From a virus, in UHGV virus genome UHGV-0182645: 12,895 nucleotides of DNA; one strand, written 5' to 3'. Under the pieces are notes generated by a model. It was not told the origin of the DNA, did not search any database, and was given only the letters and a program-made list of their open reading frames with translations. Each line of letters opens with the position of its first letter. The first letter of the stretch is position 1. Of the stretch, positions 3,650 through 8,199 are shown piece by piece. Position numbers and translations under genes: made by a program.

Positions 3650-3977
3650 TCACATTAGTAGCTTTGTTAACTCCCTCAATACCAGGTAGAAGAGTAACAA
3701 AAATATTGACGCCAGTATTTGCGTGGTCAATGAAGCGTTCATAAACAGATCAATTAGCATTAATAATTCGAATATAACATCCATGTCATTCACTCCGTTT
3801 AATTTTTAATCTAATGCCAGCAAATGAAGCTGGCCCCCGCACAAAGATTAATGAAAGTCACTTGTCACCAGTGAGGGGATTTATGAACCACATCCCCCTG
3901 AACTGGTGGCCTGTCTGTTTCTCACATTTCACACCCTGCATACAGTTTCCCCCAGGTTATGACTGAGAGGCTTTGTT

Positions 3978-4307: not shown

Positions 4308-5493
4308 TTTCCTGAAAAACCAGGACGGGCGCTATATCACTGACGGCCTGTCCTCTAAGGACTTCACGCGTTTATTCGACCTTATCAGGAAAGAACAAAC
4401 CCGTAAGCGCCGACAAGCTCACCGGACGCTGACGCCAGGTAGACTGAGGAACAAATCCGCCGAAGATATTCTCAAGTTAGGGAAGAAAAAAGGCGGCACG
4501 TTCTTCACGCGAGACGACCTGAAAGGTTTCGAAAAGCTACGGAGTAAAACACGCGAAAAATATGACAGCAAGACGGCTGGCATCACATACGCCCAGCTGG
4601 TGGCATCCAGCCAGGCAATCGATATTAAGCGTGCAAATAACGCCGTGGATGACGGATCTGGTATCAAAAGAGCTACACCCGTATCTCTTCGCCACAACGT
4701 GATTAATATCCGCGTAGAAGCATCGGATATATCCGTCCACCAGCACCATATCGTCCGGATACGCTTTGAAGAATGGGATCAGATGGTCGATGACATCGCA
4801 GAAGACGATAAATCAGCTCTGAAAATCACTAAATCACTGTGCGCTGGGCGGGTGTCTTTCGATTGTGACTGTGGTCGTCATCAATACTGGTATCGTTACA
4901 TCGCTACTGCGGGTAACTTTGCCCTGGCCCCGCCAAAAGAATACGCCTATCCAAAAGTTCGTAACCCTAAGCTACAAGGCGTCGCCTGTAAACACGTGAT
5001 CCACTCAATGACGCGGTTACAGTCCGCTAGTTGGCAAATGAGTATTGCTCGTGCGTTACAAAAGGCCGCAACGCAAATTGCATTTGGTGACGATCGCCGC
5101 CGTACAACCAAACACTTCTCAAAAGAAGACGAGAGGGAGTTTAATCGCAATCGCAACAGTAAAACAAACGTTGACGCTGCCAAGCGCGAATGGAGGCTCT
5201 ATCAGAAGCGCCAGGCAGCTTTAAGTACAAAACTGGCAAAGGACAACGGCAAGATCGACAAGCTACGTGACCAATTGACCAGGGCCAGAAAGTTGTCAGA
5301 CGCACAGAAAAAACGGGCGGCTGCAAAAGAAGCGGCCTTGCAACGTGAGAAACAGAAAAACAAGGAGCTTCAGCAACGCCTTGCCGATCAGTTCGCACTG
5401 AAGAAGCAAGCGTTCATTGATGCGCTTGTCATGGCTGGAACGCCACAAGAACAGGCTGAGAAGATGTTTATAGAGTACGTGAAAAAAGCATAA
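4300..5493 (+). CDS. 397-aa protein with a CxC...CxH (SWIM-like) putative zinc-binding motif and a highly charged C-terminal coiled-coil-like tail; function unknown
   Basis: ATG 4300 overlaps the upstream stop (ATGCCTGA). Motif FDCDCGRHQYW...GVACKHVIH. The last ~100 aa are K/R/E/Q/A-rich with heptad-like periodicity. Confidence 0.7.
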   Translation: MPDFLKNQDGRYITDGLSSKDFTRLFDLIRKEQTRKRRQAHRTLTPGRLRNKSAEDILKLGKKKGGTFFTRDDLKGFEKLRSKTREKYDSKTAGITYAQLVASSQAIDIKRANNAVDDGSGIKRATPVSLRHNVINIRVEASDISVHQHHIVRIRFEEWDQMVDDIAEDDKSALKITKSLCAGRVSFDCDCGRHQYWYRYIATAGNFALAPPKEYAYPKVRNPKLQGVACKHVIHSMTRLQSASWQMSIARALQKAATQIAFGDDRRRTTKHFSKEDEREFNRNRNSKTNVDAAKREWRLYQKRQAALSTKLAKDNGKIDKLRDQLTRARKLSDAQKKRAAAKEAALQREKQKNKELQQRLADQFALKKQAFIDALVMAGTPQEQAEKMFIEYVKKA

Positions 5494-5526
5494 ACCACAC
5501 ATAGCCTAGTAGTTTATGCTGGGCTT

Positions 5527-6255
5527 TCATTTTTTTGAAAGATCAATTCCAGTATTATCAAACAAACTGGAAATATCAGACACCAATTTATTAAAATGCT
5601 TGTCATCATTATAGAATGATGTGCTTTTTATAGCGACTATAAAATCACATAAATCTTGCGGAGATTCAATGCTAACCCCCTTATTTTTATATAGCTCAAT
5701 AATACTGCCAACATCAGTATGCAATAGTTTTATCGCGCCACAAATTTCTCGCTGTTTCGCAACTAGGTCATTAAGTTTATTTTCATTTTCATCTAAGATT
5801 TGTTTTGAATATTTAGCGTCATTGGTTGCTTGATTTAACTTTGTTTTCTTTCTTTGCAATTCTATTCTTTTATCATAATCAGCAACTTCATCTAAATATC
5901 TTATTTCAGTGTATAATTTACTTGTTAGCTTAGATATCTTCAGTGTGAGAATAGGAGCTAACACAGATGCAAATACTCCATAAACAAATGGGATTACAAC
6001 GTGATAAACCCACGGGGATACAATCCAATTATCAAAGAACGGGACATTGCCACCAACAAAAACAATAGATAATGTATATAGGATGTCGTCCTTTGACTTT
6101 AATATAATTAAAATATCCTTCCAGTTAAAAATTAGAAAAGAAATGACAACATATGCAAAAACCTTGTTAAATATTTTATCTTTTATTATTTCAGAAAATG
6201 ATTTTAGTTCTGTTTCATTTATAGACGGATTATCTGTAACTTTTTCTGACATCAT
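5527..6255 (-). CDS. AT-rich membrane protein, 242 aa: two predicted TM segments, a coiled-coil segment and a C-terminal domain; candidate exclusion or abortive-infection effector
   Basis: AGGAT lies 6 nt before ATG 6255. Hydrophobic segments VFAYVVISFLIFNWKDILIIL and VVIPFVYGVFASVLAPILTL, then a charged heptad-like stretch (RIELQRKKTKLNQATNDAKYSKQILDENENKLNDLVAKQ). Hand-counted G+C in sampled 60-nt stretches is about 23-32%, against about 50% in flanking genes. Confidence 0.65.
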   Translation of the reverse strand: MMSEKVTDNPSINETELKSFSEIIKDKIFNKVFAYVVISFLIFNWKDILIILKSKDDILYTLSIVFVGGNVPFFDNWIVSPWVYHVVIPFVYGVFASVLAPILTLKISKLTSKLYTEIRYLDEVADYDKRIELQRKKTKLNQATNDAKYSKQILDENENKLNDLVAKQREICGAIKLLHTDVGSIIELYKNKGVSIESPQDLCDFIVAIKSTSFYNDDKHFNKLVSDISSLFDNTGIDLSKK

Positions 6256-6276
6256 AGCTTATCCTGATTACTTTTA

Positions 6277-6477
6277 TTATGGATAGTTAAAAGATTCAAC
6301 AGGTGATGGTGGCTGAATTGGGTAATGTTTCTTCTCGTACTCCTCAATGAGAAGACTCATAACCTCAAAGAAATCACCTTCCGGAGTATTCATTTCCGGT
6401 TCGTTATCGAACATCGGTTCGACCGCACGCAGTGCGGCCTCATAATCTTGTTCTGTACGGATAGGTTTAATGTTCAT
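6277..6477 (-). CDS. orphan 66-aa ORF resembling only the N-terminal (non-HTH) part of a longer HigA-type antitoxin; possible gene remnant or small partner of the adjacent membrane protein
   Basis: Sequence MNIKPIRTEQDYEAALRAVEPMFDNEPEMNTPEGDFFEVMSLLIEEYEKKHYPIQPP fits the N-terminal consensus I recall for that antitoxin family (..EYE.AL..I..L.D....PEGD..E.L..LIE.YE..HYPI). The ORF stops where the HTH would start. No clear SD; it starts 12 nt after a terminator hairpin. Confidence 0.4.
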   Translation of the reverse strand: MNIKPIRTEQDYEAALRAVEPMFDNEPEMNTPEGDFFEVMSLLIEEYEKKHYPIQPPSPVESFNYP

Positions 6478-6489
6478 TAATTACAAAGG

Positions 6490-6516
6490 AAAGCCCACTT
6501 GCTAAGTGGGCTTTTT
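6490..6516. terminator. bidirectional-capable intrinsic terminator (10-bp stem AAAGCCCACT / AGTGGGCTTT, loop TGCTA)
   Basis: Perfect 10-bp stem. Followed on the plus strand by TTGTATGTGTTTT and on the minus strand by CCUUUGU. Sits 18 nt past the higA stop. Confidence 0.5.
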
Positions 6517-6533
6517 GTATGTGTTTTACTATA

Positions 6534-6872
6534 TCAGGCTGCTTTTTTATTCAGGTTCCGCTGAGAAATAAATTTTTCAGCAGTATTGATACGACTTAAC
6601 TCTTCCTGAACGCGCATATCATTTTCGACTTCCCACAGATCTACTGCGGTCTGAAGATTAATCCAAAAATCTACAGAAGTATCGAATGCTTTTGCCAGGC
6701 GATATGCCATATCCATCGTTAGCTTACGATTATTATTAACAAGAGCACTTACGGTGTTACGATGAACATGAAGTATTTCTGCTAACTCGTTGATCTTCAG
6801 CTCTAACGGCTCCAGGTATTCGTACAGAAGGATATCACCTACGGTCGTCGGTTTTCTGGTTGCCTGTTTCAT
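6534..6872 (-). CDS. higA: HigA-type antitoxin, XRE-family HTH, 112 aa
   Basis: AAGGG lies about 7 nt before ATG 6872. The protein shows the HigA pattern (PGDIL..EYLEPL...INELAEIL.V....VS.L.N....LT.DMA.RL...F..S..FW.NLQ) and lies immediately downstream of the HigB-like toxin gene. Confidence 0.85.
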   Translation of the reverse strand: MKQATRKPTTVGDILLYEYLEPLELKINELAEILHVHRNTVSALVNNNRKLTMDMAYRLAKAFDTSVDFWINLQTAVDLWEVENDMRVQEELSRINTAEKFISQRNLNKKAA

Positions 6873-6942
6873 TTTTTGCCCTTACTAGCGTGCGTATTAA
6901 GTGGACTCTGGTCAGAACCCGGACCGTAACCGGGAATCTGTT

Positions 6943-7245
6943 TTAGTATTTGTGAGGGTCGAGATACAAGTCCTCGGCCTTTCCGTTAACCCACTTAAAA
7001 ATTAACCTATATTGCTTATTCACCCTTACTGATGAATAGCCATTTAGCTTCCCTGACAGTTCCTCATACCGATTACCTGGTGGTGATCTTAAATCCTTAC
7101 AGGTAGTTGCGGCATTGATAATGTCCAACTTCCGTGACAATGTCATATGAATATCAGGAGGTATCTTTCTATGTGGTGTTGAAAATTCAAAAAAATCATC
7201 AAGCCACGCATCCCTGAAATCCTTTATGTTAATTTTTTTGGTCAT
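6943..7245 (-). CDS. higB: HigB-type toxin (RelE/ParE superfamily, killer-protein family), 100 aa
   Basis: C-terminal signature YEELSGKLNGYSSVRVNKQYRLIFKWVNGKAEDLYLDPHKY matches the HigB killer-protein motif (W/YR..F.F.NGDA..L.Y.DYH) from memory. Toxin-first order with the HTH antitoxin downstream. Confidence 0.85.
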   Translation of the reverse strand: MTKKINIKDFRDAWLDDFFEFSTPHRKIPPDIHMTLSRKLDIINAATTCKDLRSPPGNRYEELSGKLNGYSSVRVNKQYRLIFKWVNGKAEDLYLDPHKY

Positions 7246-7284
7246 TAGTCATTTGATCCTCCGTGATGATTACCGAATGCCATA

Positions 7285-7318
7285 ACTATAGCGCACTGTT
7301 GCACTGTGCGCAAGTGCA
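7285..7318 (-). promoter_or_regulatory. putative higBA promoter with overlapping operator-like repeats (-10 TATAGT; GCACTGT x2 plus inverted GTGCA)
   Basis: On the minus strand, TATAGT (plus coords 7285-7290) sits about 40 nt upstream of the higB ATG. Immediately upstream is GCACTGT-T-GCACTGT-GCGCAA-GTGCA (7293-7318), a typical arrangement for autoregulated TA operators. The -35 is weak (TTGCGC). Confidence 0.35.
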
Positions 7319-7407
7319 TTTTATGGATTCCCCCTCCTTCATCCAAAATCACAATCTCCCGAAAATCTTCCTTTCGATACCTGACAGATCGACCTTTGAG
7401 GATGCTT

Positions 7408-8199
7408 ATGGGCCGTTTTGACGAATGGTTTGCTGACGATGCAAACCTGGCAAGTAAGGAGTCAGAACATGACAGCACGCAGAGAGAAACGCCAGCGCCG
7501 ATTGAAGCGAATGCAGGAGGTGCGCCGGAACATGGCAATACCGGTTCGGATTCATTCAGCATTCTGGAAGAGCAACCCGCCGCCAAAGCTGATAGCCATG
7601 ATAATTTTGCTGATAGCAACGCTGGCCTTACTCCGGATGCTGCCGAATCAGATATAGCCATACTTCCACCTTCCCTGGCTGGCAGAGAACCAACTCCACA
7701 GCTAAAAGCACGCTATAACGGGCATAAAGCCTTTAATGACCAAATCCGCGCAGACTGGATGCTGATTATTGAATCCAGCCCAGACGCGTTTCAGGCTCTC
7801 TTATATCGACCAGATGTTGGCACATATGGGGTAGTCAGCGACGAAACAGGAGAAGAGTCATTCACTGAACTGGATAACAACCAACGCGAACTGACTTACC
7901 AGGAACCTGAAATCGTTTATGTGCTGGATAACCCTGACGGGCGTGACTCTTTCCATGCGATTGACGCAGACGGTGAGCAGGATGGCTTAACCGATGATGT
8001 TCTGATTCTGCGTATTGCAGCAAATAACGTCCCCGTCGGCTCAATTCTTGAATGGAATGAAGAGATGGTAAACGGCGTAGCCCGCCGCTGGTGGTACGTG
8101 CACCGTATTTTTAGCTACGGCACACAGCATGTTGGTTCGCTTTACTACTGCATACCTGCCAGGAATTTTGATACGACTCAAAACGGAGTGATCGAATGA
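7408..8199 (+). CDS. hypothetical protein, 263 aa, with an acidic low-complexity N-terminal half; first gene of a four-gene coupled operon
   Basis: GAGG at 7398-7401 lies 6 nt before ATG 7408. The track ORF starts at GTG 7306, but that would run through the divergent higBA promoter. Stop overlaps the next start (ATGA). Confidence 0.65.
   Translation: MGRFDEWFADDANLASKESEHDSTQRETPAPIEANAGGAPEHGNTGSDSFSILEEQPAAKADSHDNFADSNAGLTPDAAESDIAILPPSLAGREPTPQLKARYNGHKAFNDQIRADWMLIIESSPDAFQALLYRPDVGTYGVVSDETGEESFTELDNNQRELTYQEPEIVYVLDNPDGRDSFHAIDADGEQDGLTDDVLILRIAANNVPVGSILEWNEEMVNGVARRWWYVHRIFSYGTQHVGSLYYCIPARNFDTTQNGVIE

Follow-up and report, generated by a model that had tools for sequence, protein, structure and literature searches.

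The higBA module of a D6-like phage-plasmid: an annotated toxin-antitoxin pair with a conserved operator inside its promoter

Identity of the module

The minus strand of the stretch analysed here (the window, 12,895 nucleotides of the UHGV virus genome UHGV-0182645) carries the already annotated HigB/HigA pair of phage-plasmid D6 and its Escherichia coli and Salmonella relatives, a real but ordinary toxin-antitoxin module. The two features that had seemed odd in a sequence-only reading, the long gap between the genes and the repeats at the promoter, are normal, conserved traits of the gene family. As an overall explanation, we put at roughly three in four the probability that the region represents a higBA addiction cassette carried by a D6-like phage-plasmid of the P1 family, and GenBank, RefSeq and the literature already describe the D6 module as an addiction system.

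The window itself derives from such an element, matching phage D6 and E. coli plasmids of ~90 kb; across 5400-7700, all 100 E. coli matches among those listed are plasmids of about that size. The higBA DNA is >99% identical to D6 orf70/orf71 over the promoter, genes, spacer and terminator, and lies in the same place, between the homologues of P1 genes 25 and 7. Six point differences separate the two modules, with higB 100% identical to orf70 at the DNA level and the changes in higA synonymous only. The D6 genes are annotated in GenBank MF356679 as 'RelE family mRNA endonuclease addiction module toxin' and 'HigA family addiction module anti-toxin', and the RefSeq entries for the pair are WP_000162415.1 and WP_000806445.1. 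The window differs from D6 in the region of the fourth operator half-site (ACAGTGC versus ACGGTGC), in two substitutions that weaken the spacer hairpin by shortening its core from 7 to 5 bp, and in the truncation of the downstream orf72. Intact, almost unvarying copies of the module are found in ~90 plasmids, and a decayed, frameshifted copy is present in pSa1423-160k (L004).

The toxin gene lies upstream, with higB (7245-6943) followed on the same strand by higA (6872-6534), and the two share one upstream promoter and one downstream terminator, so arranged that they are probably co-transcribed as one unit. HigB (100 aa) belongs to the RelE-fold mRNA interferase toxins, matching Pfam PF05015 (HigB-like_toxin; E=4.4e-35, 120.5 bits against a cut-off of 27) and phrog_3066, 'toxin of TA system'. 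Its nearest solved structure is GraT of Pseudomonas putida (6f8s_B, E=2.8e-14), in an alignment that spans residues 20-87 only, and its C-terminal His aligns with HigB of Proteus vulgaris. HigA (112 aa) is a YbaQ-type helix-turn-helix (HTH) antitoxin/repressor that scores 102.5 bits against the NCBIfam equivalog TIGR02607 (antidote_HigA; cut-off 47.7), matches Pfam HTH_3, and has PDB matches to YbaQ, GraA and HigA; against the E. coli YbaQ structure 2eby it gives E=1e-53 with a nearly identical recognition helix. The sequence-only reading had named the genes from motifs, and these matches bear the assignment out, with both genes intact. With its HigB/RelE-fold toxin, HigA-type HTH (Xre) antitoxin and toxin-first order, the module is a member of the HigBA type II family.

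Relation to known systems

Judging by protein identity and layout, the module is a paralogue of the higB-1/ybaQ pair located between ybaP and copA on the E. coli chromosome, with ~80% identity in HigB, ~78% in HigA, and the same gene order and promoter-operator design. Unlike the phage-plasmid pair, the chromosomal one has a spacer of 35 nt without the GC hairpin, and its toxin is absent from K-12 and from the majority of phylogroups. In that system, ybaQ is required for viability only in strains whose higB-1 is intact, the higB-1 promoter carries a YbaQ motif, and knock-down of ybaQ de-represses higB-1 (Rousset et al., bioRxiv 10.1101/2020.05.25.114553).

More distant systems share parts of this design. 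The GraT/GraA pair of P. putida (PDB 6f8s, 6fix) provides the closest toxin structure and likewise has an HTH-dimer antitoxin. The founding hig system, HigB-HigA of Rts1/P. vulgaris, is also toxin-first and plasmid-borne, with a RelE-fold toxin of the same Pfam family and an HTH antitoxin, but its proteins are only distantly related (toxin E ~1e-3, antitoxin E ~1e-4) and its operator sequences differ. Finally, Phd-Doc of P1 has the same presumed job, the stabilisation of the plasmid prophage by post-segregational killing, and both systems are found on D6-like plasmids; however, its proteins belong to unrelated families, and its antitoxin gene precedes the toxin gene.

Promoter and operator

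The predicted higB promoter, as read from the sequence, is of the sigma-70 type and occupies 7285-7313 on the minus strand, with a -35 element TTGCGC (7313-7308), a 17-nt spacer and a -10 element TATAGT (7290-7285). With 8/12 consensus matches it falls below the threshold of the consensus scan and is thus absent from the scan list, yet its architecture, TTGnGC ... TAnnnT, is conserved across the clade. On the plus strand, GCACTGT is found at 7293-7299 and again at 7301-7307, accompanied by the inverted repeats TGCACT/AGTGCA (7300-7305/7313-7318) and GCGCACTGT/ACTGTGCGC. The repeats next to TATAGT are thus present as the sequence-only reading had described them, and they do lie in the promoter of the module; the conserved unit, however, is not the GCACTGT tandem. 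A 7-nt repeat in two copies is by itself not significant, and the second heptamer is not kept even in D6, where it reads ACGGTGC, which is why the tetramers GCAC/GTGC are preferred as the unit.

Four such tetramers (7317-7314, 7309-7306, 7304-7301 and 7296-7293) make up a 25-bp dyad, GCAC-TTGC-GCAC-A-GTGC-AACA-GTGC, at 7293-7317, which is the predicted site for two dimers of the YbaQ-type HigA. The pattern GCAC-N4-GCAC-N-GTGC-N4-GTGC occurs once in the window, where 0.01 is expected, and exactly in 30/38 related loci from different species, at a fixed distance from higB and in the same promoter frame. Its uniqueness in the window together with this exact recurrence in homologous loci makes the promoter repeats more than a product of chance. 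The operator sits between the -35 TTGCGC and the -10 TATAGT and fills the promoter spacer, and it is the likely binding site of HigA. While the overlap of the dyad with the spacer is conserved in those 30 loci, the demonstration of repression is confined to the chromosomal paralogue. The layout of the half-sites also fits that of GraTA, where two antitoxin dimers, sitting on opposite faces of the DNA, bind a central palindrome and distal half-sites (PMC6393540). The likeness is one of geometry, as the operator sequences are unrelated (TAACGTTA in GraTA versus GCAC-N-GTGC in the window).

A late promoter of the P1 type was also considered at the start of higB. The -22 box of P1 LP26, AAATGACTA, is matched exactly at 7246-7254 on the minus strand, but no -10 element follows it on either strand, and the match is treated as a coincidence or a vestige.

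Translation start of higB

The Shine-Dalgarno sequence GGAGG (7258-7262, minus strand) lies 12 nt from the higB ATG at 7245 and only 5 nt from an out-of-frame ATG at 7252. The latter opens a mini-ORF (7229-7252, minus strand; MTNDQKN and a stop) that is out of frame with higB and overlaps its start. Out-of-frame ATGs at this position recur across the family: one is found at -5 in 14/37 loci and at -7 in 4/37, against a background of ~1/37 per position. In these loci, the out-of-frame ATG precedes that of higB by 5-7 nt, is better placed relative to the Shine-Dalgarno sequence, and opens a mini-ORF of 1-14 codons overlapping the higB start. In the D6 lineage, this putative decoy derives from a tandem 7-nt unit, AATGACC, with 2 copies in the window and 5 in E. 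albertii. It could be speculated that two features tune the cassette: the conserved decoy ATG may throttle translation of the toxin, with the AATGACC copy number making its output adjustable, and the near-universal orphan ybaQ of E. coli may serve as host immunity (anti-addiction) against the toxin of the phage-plasmid. We offer this as a tentative proposal.

The spacer between higB and higA

The two genes are separated by exactly 70 nt (6873-6942). This gap had been called unusually long, which holds by comparison with toxin-antitoxin pairs in general, as illustrated by two other pairs in sister plasmids with gaps of 3 and 8 nt; within the clade it is ordinary, as the spacers of 40 Enterobacterales loci range from 11 to 115 nt with a median of ~61. 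On the minus strand, the spacer holds the Shine-Dalgarno sequence of higA (AAGGG, 6883-6879) and an in-frame TAA (6884-6882). A longer HigA filling the gap is ruled out, since this stop lies 12 nt upstream of the ATG and the spacer contains no ATG of its own. Between lineages the spacer sequences are not homologous, and consist of various hairpins, (CCCGTAGA)n repeats, or nothing of the kind.

The GC-rich hairpin pointed out in the sequence-only reading is present. It forms a stem-loop at 6913-6940 on the minus strand, with a core of CCCGG (6934-6930) and CCGGG (6922-6918), a 7-nt loop and an outer stem CAGA/TCTG. Folded alone (29 nt) it reaches -13.4 kcal/mol (z=-3.05), while the fold of the whole spacer is unexceptional (z=-0.44 or -0.8). 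The core is kept in D6 and in plasmid loci L002, L003, L004, L008 and L009, with differing loops and flanking pairs, and compared with D6 and with the nearest plasmid the window has two substitutions that disrupt pairs. The hairpin is a trait of the plasmid lineage that is weakened in the window. As a family-wide trait it was rejected, because spacers across the clade are no more stably folded than their dinucleotide-shuffled versions (mean z=-0.58; 2/29 below -2).

Two explanations would give the spacer a regulatory purpose. In one, the hairpin is a functional regulator, either as an RNA stem-loop that sets the ratio of toxin to antitoxin through stability, processing or attenuation, or as a plus-strand terminator that shields higB from antisense read-through of the late tail operon. 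The CCCGG/CCGGG core persists in seven plasmid-lineage sequences at 75-99% identity despite differing loops, a flanking pair changes from A-T (D6, L008, L009) to G-C (L003), and the local fold reaches z of about -3 to -4.7; on the plus strand, the stem is followed by AATCTGTTTT, which was called terminator-like, and in L003 and L008 by the tail TTTTATTTT or TTTGTTTT. Against this, a DNA palindrome would give the same covariation, the two substitutions of the window allele each break a pair present in D6 and L002, and the hairpin is missing from the chromosomal paralogue and many clade members, whose spacers fold like shuffled sequence. An intrinsic terminator or attenuator on the sense strand was rejected, as no T-run follows the stem there, and read-through on the plus strand already meets two stronger terminators upstream (5503-5525 and 6488-6516). 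An Rfam scan of the spacer and leader gave no match better than E=0.12, with all matches far below the gathering scores. A regulatory hairpin is therefore doubtful; we grant it at most a modest tuning role, and a function is without support. In the other explanation, the long spacer exists to hold a separate higA promoter from which the antitoxin would be supplied independently. Both Rts1 higBA and mqsRA are known to have internal promoters of this kind, and K-12 expresses ybaQ without any higB upstream. However, the consensus scan found no sigma-70-like promoter on the minus strand within 6873-6942, and the sole minus-strand candidate upstream of higA lies inside higB (7146-7118, 9/12 matches). 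Such sites occur at chance level (8 found versus 7.2 expected), the -35 of the candidate is not conserved in L003, and the lack of homology between spacers of different lineages also speaks against this explanation. The candidate was accordingly rejected, and a dedicated higA promoter is very improbable.

Cassette boundaries and the cargo site

The sequence-only reading had placed the module in a minus-strand island between phage operons, and this was confirmed: the island splits a phage tail operon that in P1 runs contiguously through genes 26-25-7-24-6-5. Compared with the sister plasmid pTB423 (L084), homology ends at 7346 and resumes at 6484, so that the whole cassette, comprising promoter/operator, higB, spacer, higA and terminator, spans 6485-7345 on the minus strand. 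This 861-bp block stands in the place of higB2 and its promoter in pTB423. The cassette is closed by a bidirectional intrinsic terminator (6488-6516), called on both strands (-15.5 kcal/mol, z=-4.7).

Beyond the terminator lies a truncated orphan antitoxin gene, higA2 (6277-6477, minus strand), which encodes 66 aa in the window and the full-length 119 aa in D6 (orf72) and pTB423; RefSeq marks the equivalent gene as a pseudogene. Full-length HigA2 matches the PADLOC model PD-Lambda-2_B (E=4e-43). The higBA cassette has taken the place of the toxin in an older HigB2/HigA2 pair and left behind a decaying orphan antitoxin. An AT-rich gene encoding a membrane and coiled-coil protein comes after higA2 and matches only phrog_8191, a family of unknown function. 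The contents of the site vary between sister plasmids, with HigB2/HigA2 in pTB423 and AlpA in W444. The interval from tail gene 25 to tail gene 7 is mapped as a cargo hotspot, in which toxin-antitoxin cassettes are swapped as whole units and orphan antitoxins stay behind.

Proposed mechanism and role

In the proposed mechanism, the single sigma-70 promoter (TTGCGC-17-TATAGT) would give a bicistronic higB-higA mRNA ending at the hairpin terminator (6490-6514). HigB would be a toxin of the GraT/HigB-1 type that has a RelE fold and cleaves mRNA in a ribosome-dependent way, and HigA a YbaQ-type HTH protein that neutralises it; the conditional essentiality of ybaQ in the paralogue lends indirect support to such growth arrest and rescue. 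Translation of the two genes is probably not coupled, as higA would be read from its own Shine-Dalgarno sequence after the 70-nt gap. Two HigA dimers probably bind the operator, each on one of two interleaved pairs of inverted half-sites (1 with 3, 2 with 4); by occupying these 25 bp, which fill the -35/-10 spacer, they would shut the promoter off. Homology to higB-1/ybaQ and GraTA is thus what suggests toxicity, repression and stoichiometry, whereas the comparisons above show directly the family to which the pair belongs, the anatomy of its genes, the conservation of the operator, the limits of the cassette and its genomic context.

The most likely role of the module is to stabilise the plasmid prophage, presumably by post-segregational killing alongside phd-doc. 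D6-like plasmids are said to carry phd-doc and higA-higB as two killing systems, a literature statement in which plasmid stabilisation and antitoxin lability are asserted by annotation only (PMC6799933). GraA is an unusually stable antitoxin (PMC6393540), and if the same holds for HigA, this would argue against classical post-segregational killing. Furthermore, the host ybaQ, with its near-identical operator and recognition helix, might neutralise or cross-repress the plasmid module and thereby blunt addiction.

Two other roles were weighed against stabilisation of the prophage. As cargo of the prophage, the module might serve above all against other phages, by abortive infection, or in competition between elements; the anti-phage role had also been raised in the sequence-only reading. 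Toxin-antitoxin pairs do act in phage defence, and the cassette occupies a variable cargo site whose contents differ between sister plasmids, next to an orphan HigA2 with its PD-Lambda-2_B match and, after it, the phrog_8191 membrane/coiled-coil gene. HigB itself has no PADLOC match, though, and HigA has only weak generic HTH matches (E of 1.5e-4 or weaker); the AT-rich neighbour is matched neither in PADLOC nor in Pfam or NCBIfam, so a defence-system assignment was rejected for both HigB and this neighbour. The chromosomal paralogue acts as a plain repressor-controlled toxin, and higBA and the genes downstream of it are not a single unit, since the terminator lies between them. As the published view is also post-segregational killing (PMC6799933), the anti-phage role is unsupported and distinctly unlikely. 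Somewhat less so, but still unlikely, is that the cassette is largely neutralised selfish cargo, its promoter cross-repressed and its HigB cross-neutralised by chromosomal YbaQ in most E. coli, so that it hitch-hikes with little benefit to the plasmid. Consistent with this, ybaQ is chromosomal in ~4,833/5,426 (~89%) complete E. coli genomes, the operators are nearly identical (GCACTTGCGCACAGTGC in both plasmid and chromosomal copies), and so are the recognition helices, within an overall identity of ~78%; the frameshifted copy in pSa1423-160k and the likewise decaying HigA2 next door point the same way. Neutralised cargo is at odds, however, with a module that stays intact and nearly invariant in ~90 plasmids and differs from D6 by synonymous changes only.

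Significance

As a discovery, the module is of small value: it is annotated in phage D6 and RefSeq, cited as one of the two killing systems of D6-like plasmids, and has a characterised paralogue. The analysis instead refines its description. It provides a precise model of the operator, in which four GCAC/GTGC half-sites lie within the promoter, and this model predicts cross-talk between plasmid HigA and host YbaQ. It also gives evidence that members of the clade as a rule have long higB-higA spacers without homology to one another, and tight packing is therefore not required for toxin-first pairs. These refinements bear on the competition and persistence of phage-plasmids, including the D6-like elements, which are common in E. 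coli and Salmonella of clinical and livestock origin.

Identity and source of the higBA cassette

The minus-strand genes at this locus are a known, already annotated toxin-antitoxin cassette, and the sequence-only reading described the region correctly. The assignments it made by motif hold in profile searches: HigB (100 aa, 6943-7245) matches Pfam HigB-like_toxin over the full length (E=4.4e-35; 120.5 bits, cut-off 27), while HigA (112 aa, 6534-6872) matches HTH_3 and antidote_HigA, an NCBIfam equivalog (102.5 bits, cut-off 47.7). From the stop codon of higB to the start codon of higA, the distance put earlier at about 70 nt is exactly 70 nt (6873-6942). A longer HigA reaching into it is ruled out by an in-frame TAA 12 nt 5' of the higA ATG, and higA has its own Shine-Dalgarno, AAGGG, at 6883-6879.

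The stretch 5400-7700 is 90% identical to phage D6, a P1-related plasmid prophage, and matches, at up to 99.6% identity, 100 replicons of E. coli, every one a plasmid of ~90 kb. In the D6 GenBank record orf70 is listed as "RelE family mRNA endonuclease addiction module toxin", while orf71 appears as "HigA family addiction module anti-toxin"; RefSeq, too, names these proteins in the plasmids. Six differences separate the window from D6 across the 941 nt of the higBA unit: HigB is unchanged, and the two in higA are synonymous. For D6-like plasmids in Salmonella, phd-doc and higA-higB have been given as the two post-segregational killing systems (PMC6799933). One Salmonella plasmid, pSa1423-160k, carries a 92.5% identical copy of the cassette (locus L004, 3070-3935) with several frameshifts in both genes, so the module can decay.

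HigA shares ~78-80% identity with E. coli YbaQ (PDB 2eby; E=1e-53), and the two have almost the same recognition helix. The nearest solved toxin to HigB is P. putida GraT (6f8s_B, E=2.8e-14), whereas P. vulgaris HigB is only a distant match. By DNA search, about 4,833 of the 5,426 complete genomes of E. coli have the chromosomal ybaQ paralogue. Some strains carry both higB and ybaQ between ybaP and copA, while K-12 has ybaQ alone, with toxin and operator missing. The ybaQ gene is essential only where higB-1, the chromosomal toxin gene, is intact; a YbaQ motif lies within the higB-1 promoter, and higB-1 is strongly de-repressed on ybaQ knock-down (bioRxiv 10.1101/2020.05.25.114553).

Promoter and operator

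The regions 5' of higB were aligned across a set of 76 related loci, one genome per species. A recurrent pattern emerged, GCAC-TTGn-GCAC-n-GTGC-nnnn-GTGC followed by two bases and TAnnnT. Of 38 loci, 30 have the exact form GCAC-N4-GCAC-N-GTGC-N4-GTGC, in most cases 32-47 nt ahead of the higB ATG; the window has it once (7293-7317), against 0.01 expected. The putative higB promoter consists of a -35 TTGCGC (7313-7308, minus) and a -10 TATAGT (7290-7285, minus), and half-sites 2-4 fall inside their 17-nt spacer. A consensus promoter scan did not list it because TTGCGC matches only three of six -35 positions; the call rests on conservation across relatives.

The two GCACTGT copies pointed out earlier (7293-7299 and 7301-7307) are present, as are the overlapping inverted repeats and the TATAGT. 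The repeats are real, but the tandem GCACTGT is not their unit: it arises incidentally from half-sites 3 and 4, and the second heptamer is not kept, even in D6. Instead, the four GCAC/GTGC tetramers form a 25-bp dyad, in which half-sites 1 and 3 can be taken as one inverted pair and 2 and 4 as another, interdigitated with the first and centred 8 bp from it. This layout fits the geometry solved for GraA, where two dimers bind opposite faces, each using half of the central palindrome and one distal site (PMC6393540). Judged from their conservation, the repeats are a putative family-wide operator and the predicted HigA site. Since the half-site layout fits that of GraA, the most likely mechanism would be a block of the higB promoter by two HigA dimers. 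Where the chromosomal toxin is still present, the higB-1 operator is nearly identical to that of the plasmid; given this and the near-matching recognition helices, host YbaQ may cross-repress or neutralise the phage-plasmid higBA.

The higB-higA spacer and its hairpin

The spacer had been called unusually long. This holds against ordinary pairs, as the genes of two other toxin-antitoxin pairs on sister plasmids lie 8 and 3 nt apart, but not within the YbaQ-type clade, where the gap spans 11-115 nt with a median of ~61 (40 Enterobacterales loci); more distant relatives have 12-15 nt. A long gap is, across the loci compared, the clade norm. Spacer contents are unrelated by homology across lineages, comprising differing GC hairpins, an 8-nt tandem repeat, or nothing, and clade spacers are no more stably folded than dinucleotide-shuffled controls (mean z=-0.58; 2/29 below -2). 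In Pectobacterium and Brenneria (L023, L025, L026 and L046), the spacer is built of the 8-nt repeat CCCGTAGA in 3-7 copies, and this copy number accounts for the varying spacer length between species. The simplest reading is that translational coupling was abandoned in the clade, leaving the gap free to vary.

The hairpin CCCGG-N7-CCGGG is present as described (6918-6934, minus), with an outer stem CAGA/TCTG. Folded in isolation it reaches -13.4 kcal/mol (z=-3.05); the fold of the whole 70-nt spacer is unexceptional (z=-0.44). Its core is kept in all seven aligned plasmid-lineage sequences: the window, D6, the nearest plasmid L002, pSa1423-160k, locus L008, an E. albertii plasmid contig (L009) and, most divergent of those listed at 75% identity, a Salmonella plasmid (L003). 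The loops differ, and the pair next to the core is A-T in some sequences but G-C in L003, which hints at selection. However, the same covariation is expected from a DNA palindrome, the chromosomal higB-1/ybaQ paralogue lacks the hairpin, and the window allele carries two substitutions, each breaking a pair kept in D6 and the 99.6%-identical L002. The sense strand has no T-run after the stem, which argues against a conventional terminator or attenuator here. In the plus orientation AATCTGTTTT comes after the stem, and the hairpin was scored as terminator-like; it could thus damp antisense read-through from the tail operon, yet two stronger plus-strand terminators already lie upstream. An Rfam search for the hairpin returned no match, and a scan found no sigma-70-like site in the spacer; the single candidate inside higB was at chance level and not conserved. 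A regulatory function is judged unlikely; the hairpin is a feature of the plasmid lineage, and what it does, if anything, is doubtful.

An out-of-frame start codon before higB

The Shine-Dalgarno GGAGG (7262-7258, minus) is 12 nt away from the higB ATG (7245) but 5 nt away from another ATG, at 7252. This upstream ATG is out of frame with higB, opens MTNDQKN*, and has the better Shine-Dalgarno distance. Among the loci scored, which include L003 and L008-L041 (window element 7229-7262, minus), such an ATG stands at -5 in 14/37 and at -7 in 4/37, against about 1/37 per position elsewhere, although these loci are phylogenetically related and the counts overstate independence. The mini-ORF has 1-14 codons and overlaps the toxin start; in some loci its stop overlaps the higB start codon (ATGGAATGA, ATGTAATG). 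Loci without the extra ATG have the Shine-Dalgarno at the usual distance, and no equivalent peak was seen before higA across the clade. The out-of-frame ATG may throttle or couple toxin translation, which we offer as a hypothesis only.

In the D6 lineage, the extra ATG derives from a tandem 7-nt unit, AATGACC, with two copies in the window (one imperfect; 7240-7253, minus) and five in the E. albertii contig (~1466-1506). Each added copy brings a further start codon, in most cases not in the higB frame, and the repeat looks prone to strand slippage.

A cargo site within the tail operon

In P1, the tail/baseplate genes 26-25-7-24-6-5 form one contiguous late operon. The window bears out the claim that the module is embedded among phage operons: a minus-strand island (5527-7245) separates the homologues of genes 25 and 7. 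Compared with the sister plasmid pTB423, homology ends at 7346 and resumes at 6484. The intervening 861 bp form a self-contained cassette: promoter/operator, higB, spacer and higA, closed at 6488-6516 by a strong bidirectional terminator that both the terminator scan and the fold support. At the same site, pTB423 has another pair, HigB2 of K-12 type and a 119-aa HigA2 separated by 3 nt (locus L084, 5075-5830), and plasmid W444 has an AlpA gene (locus L085, 5082-5600); in the window and in D6 the occupants are higBA, an orphan HigA2 and an AT-rich gene. The gene-25/gene-7 site (window 5527-7345) is a cargo hotspot of D6-like phage-plasmids.

D6 encodes a full-length HigA2 (orf72), 98% identical to the pTB423 protein, without HigB2; in the window HigA2 is cut from 119 to 66 aa (6277-6477, minus). 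The GraT/YbaQ-type cassette thus replaced the toxin of the older pair, leaving an orphan antitoxin that is now decaying. The truncated HigA2 is perhaps a relic with anti-addiction function. The sister plasmids L002 (3915-4486) and W444 (L085, 7224-7795) have one more RelE/ParE-HigA pair, its genes 8 nt apart, between their mat and gene-26 homologues; the corresponding place in the window (3650-3977) has none.

Ahead of the gene-7 homologue (ATG 7408) no late-promoter box of the P1 type can be seen (7246-7407, plus), even though the island interrupts genes that P1 keeps in one operon. To be expressed, genes 7-24-6-5 may depend on transcripts that cross the island antisense to higBA and run past plus-strand terminators at 5503-5525 and 6488-6516. 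The -22 box of P1 LP26, AAATGACTA, has two exact copies in the window. One, upstream of the mat homologue, is followed after 4 nt by CACTAT, and the site (2815-2833, plus) is probably a late promoter; the other (7246-7254, minus) overlaps the higB start codon and has no -10 after it on either strand.

Likely role

An anti-phage role had been suggested for higBA, but it is unsupported, as neither HigB nor the AT-rich neighbour matches PADLOC; full-length HigA2 does match the PADLOC model PD-Lambda-2_B (E=4e-43). The AT-rich gene (242 aa, 5527-6255, minus) is absent from pTB423 and only 73% identical in DNA to its D6 counterpart. Its product has hydrophobic N-terminal segments and a coiled-coil-like tail, with a match to phrog_8191 (unknown function) and none in Pfam or NCBIfam. 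While GraA, the nearest characterised antitoxin, is unusually stable (PMC6393540), and interference from host YbaQ may also bear on this role, higBA most likely serves to stabilise the plasmid prophage.
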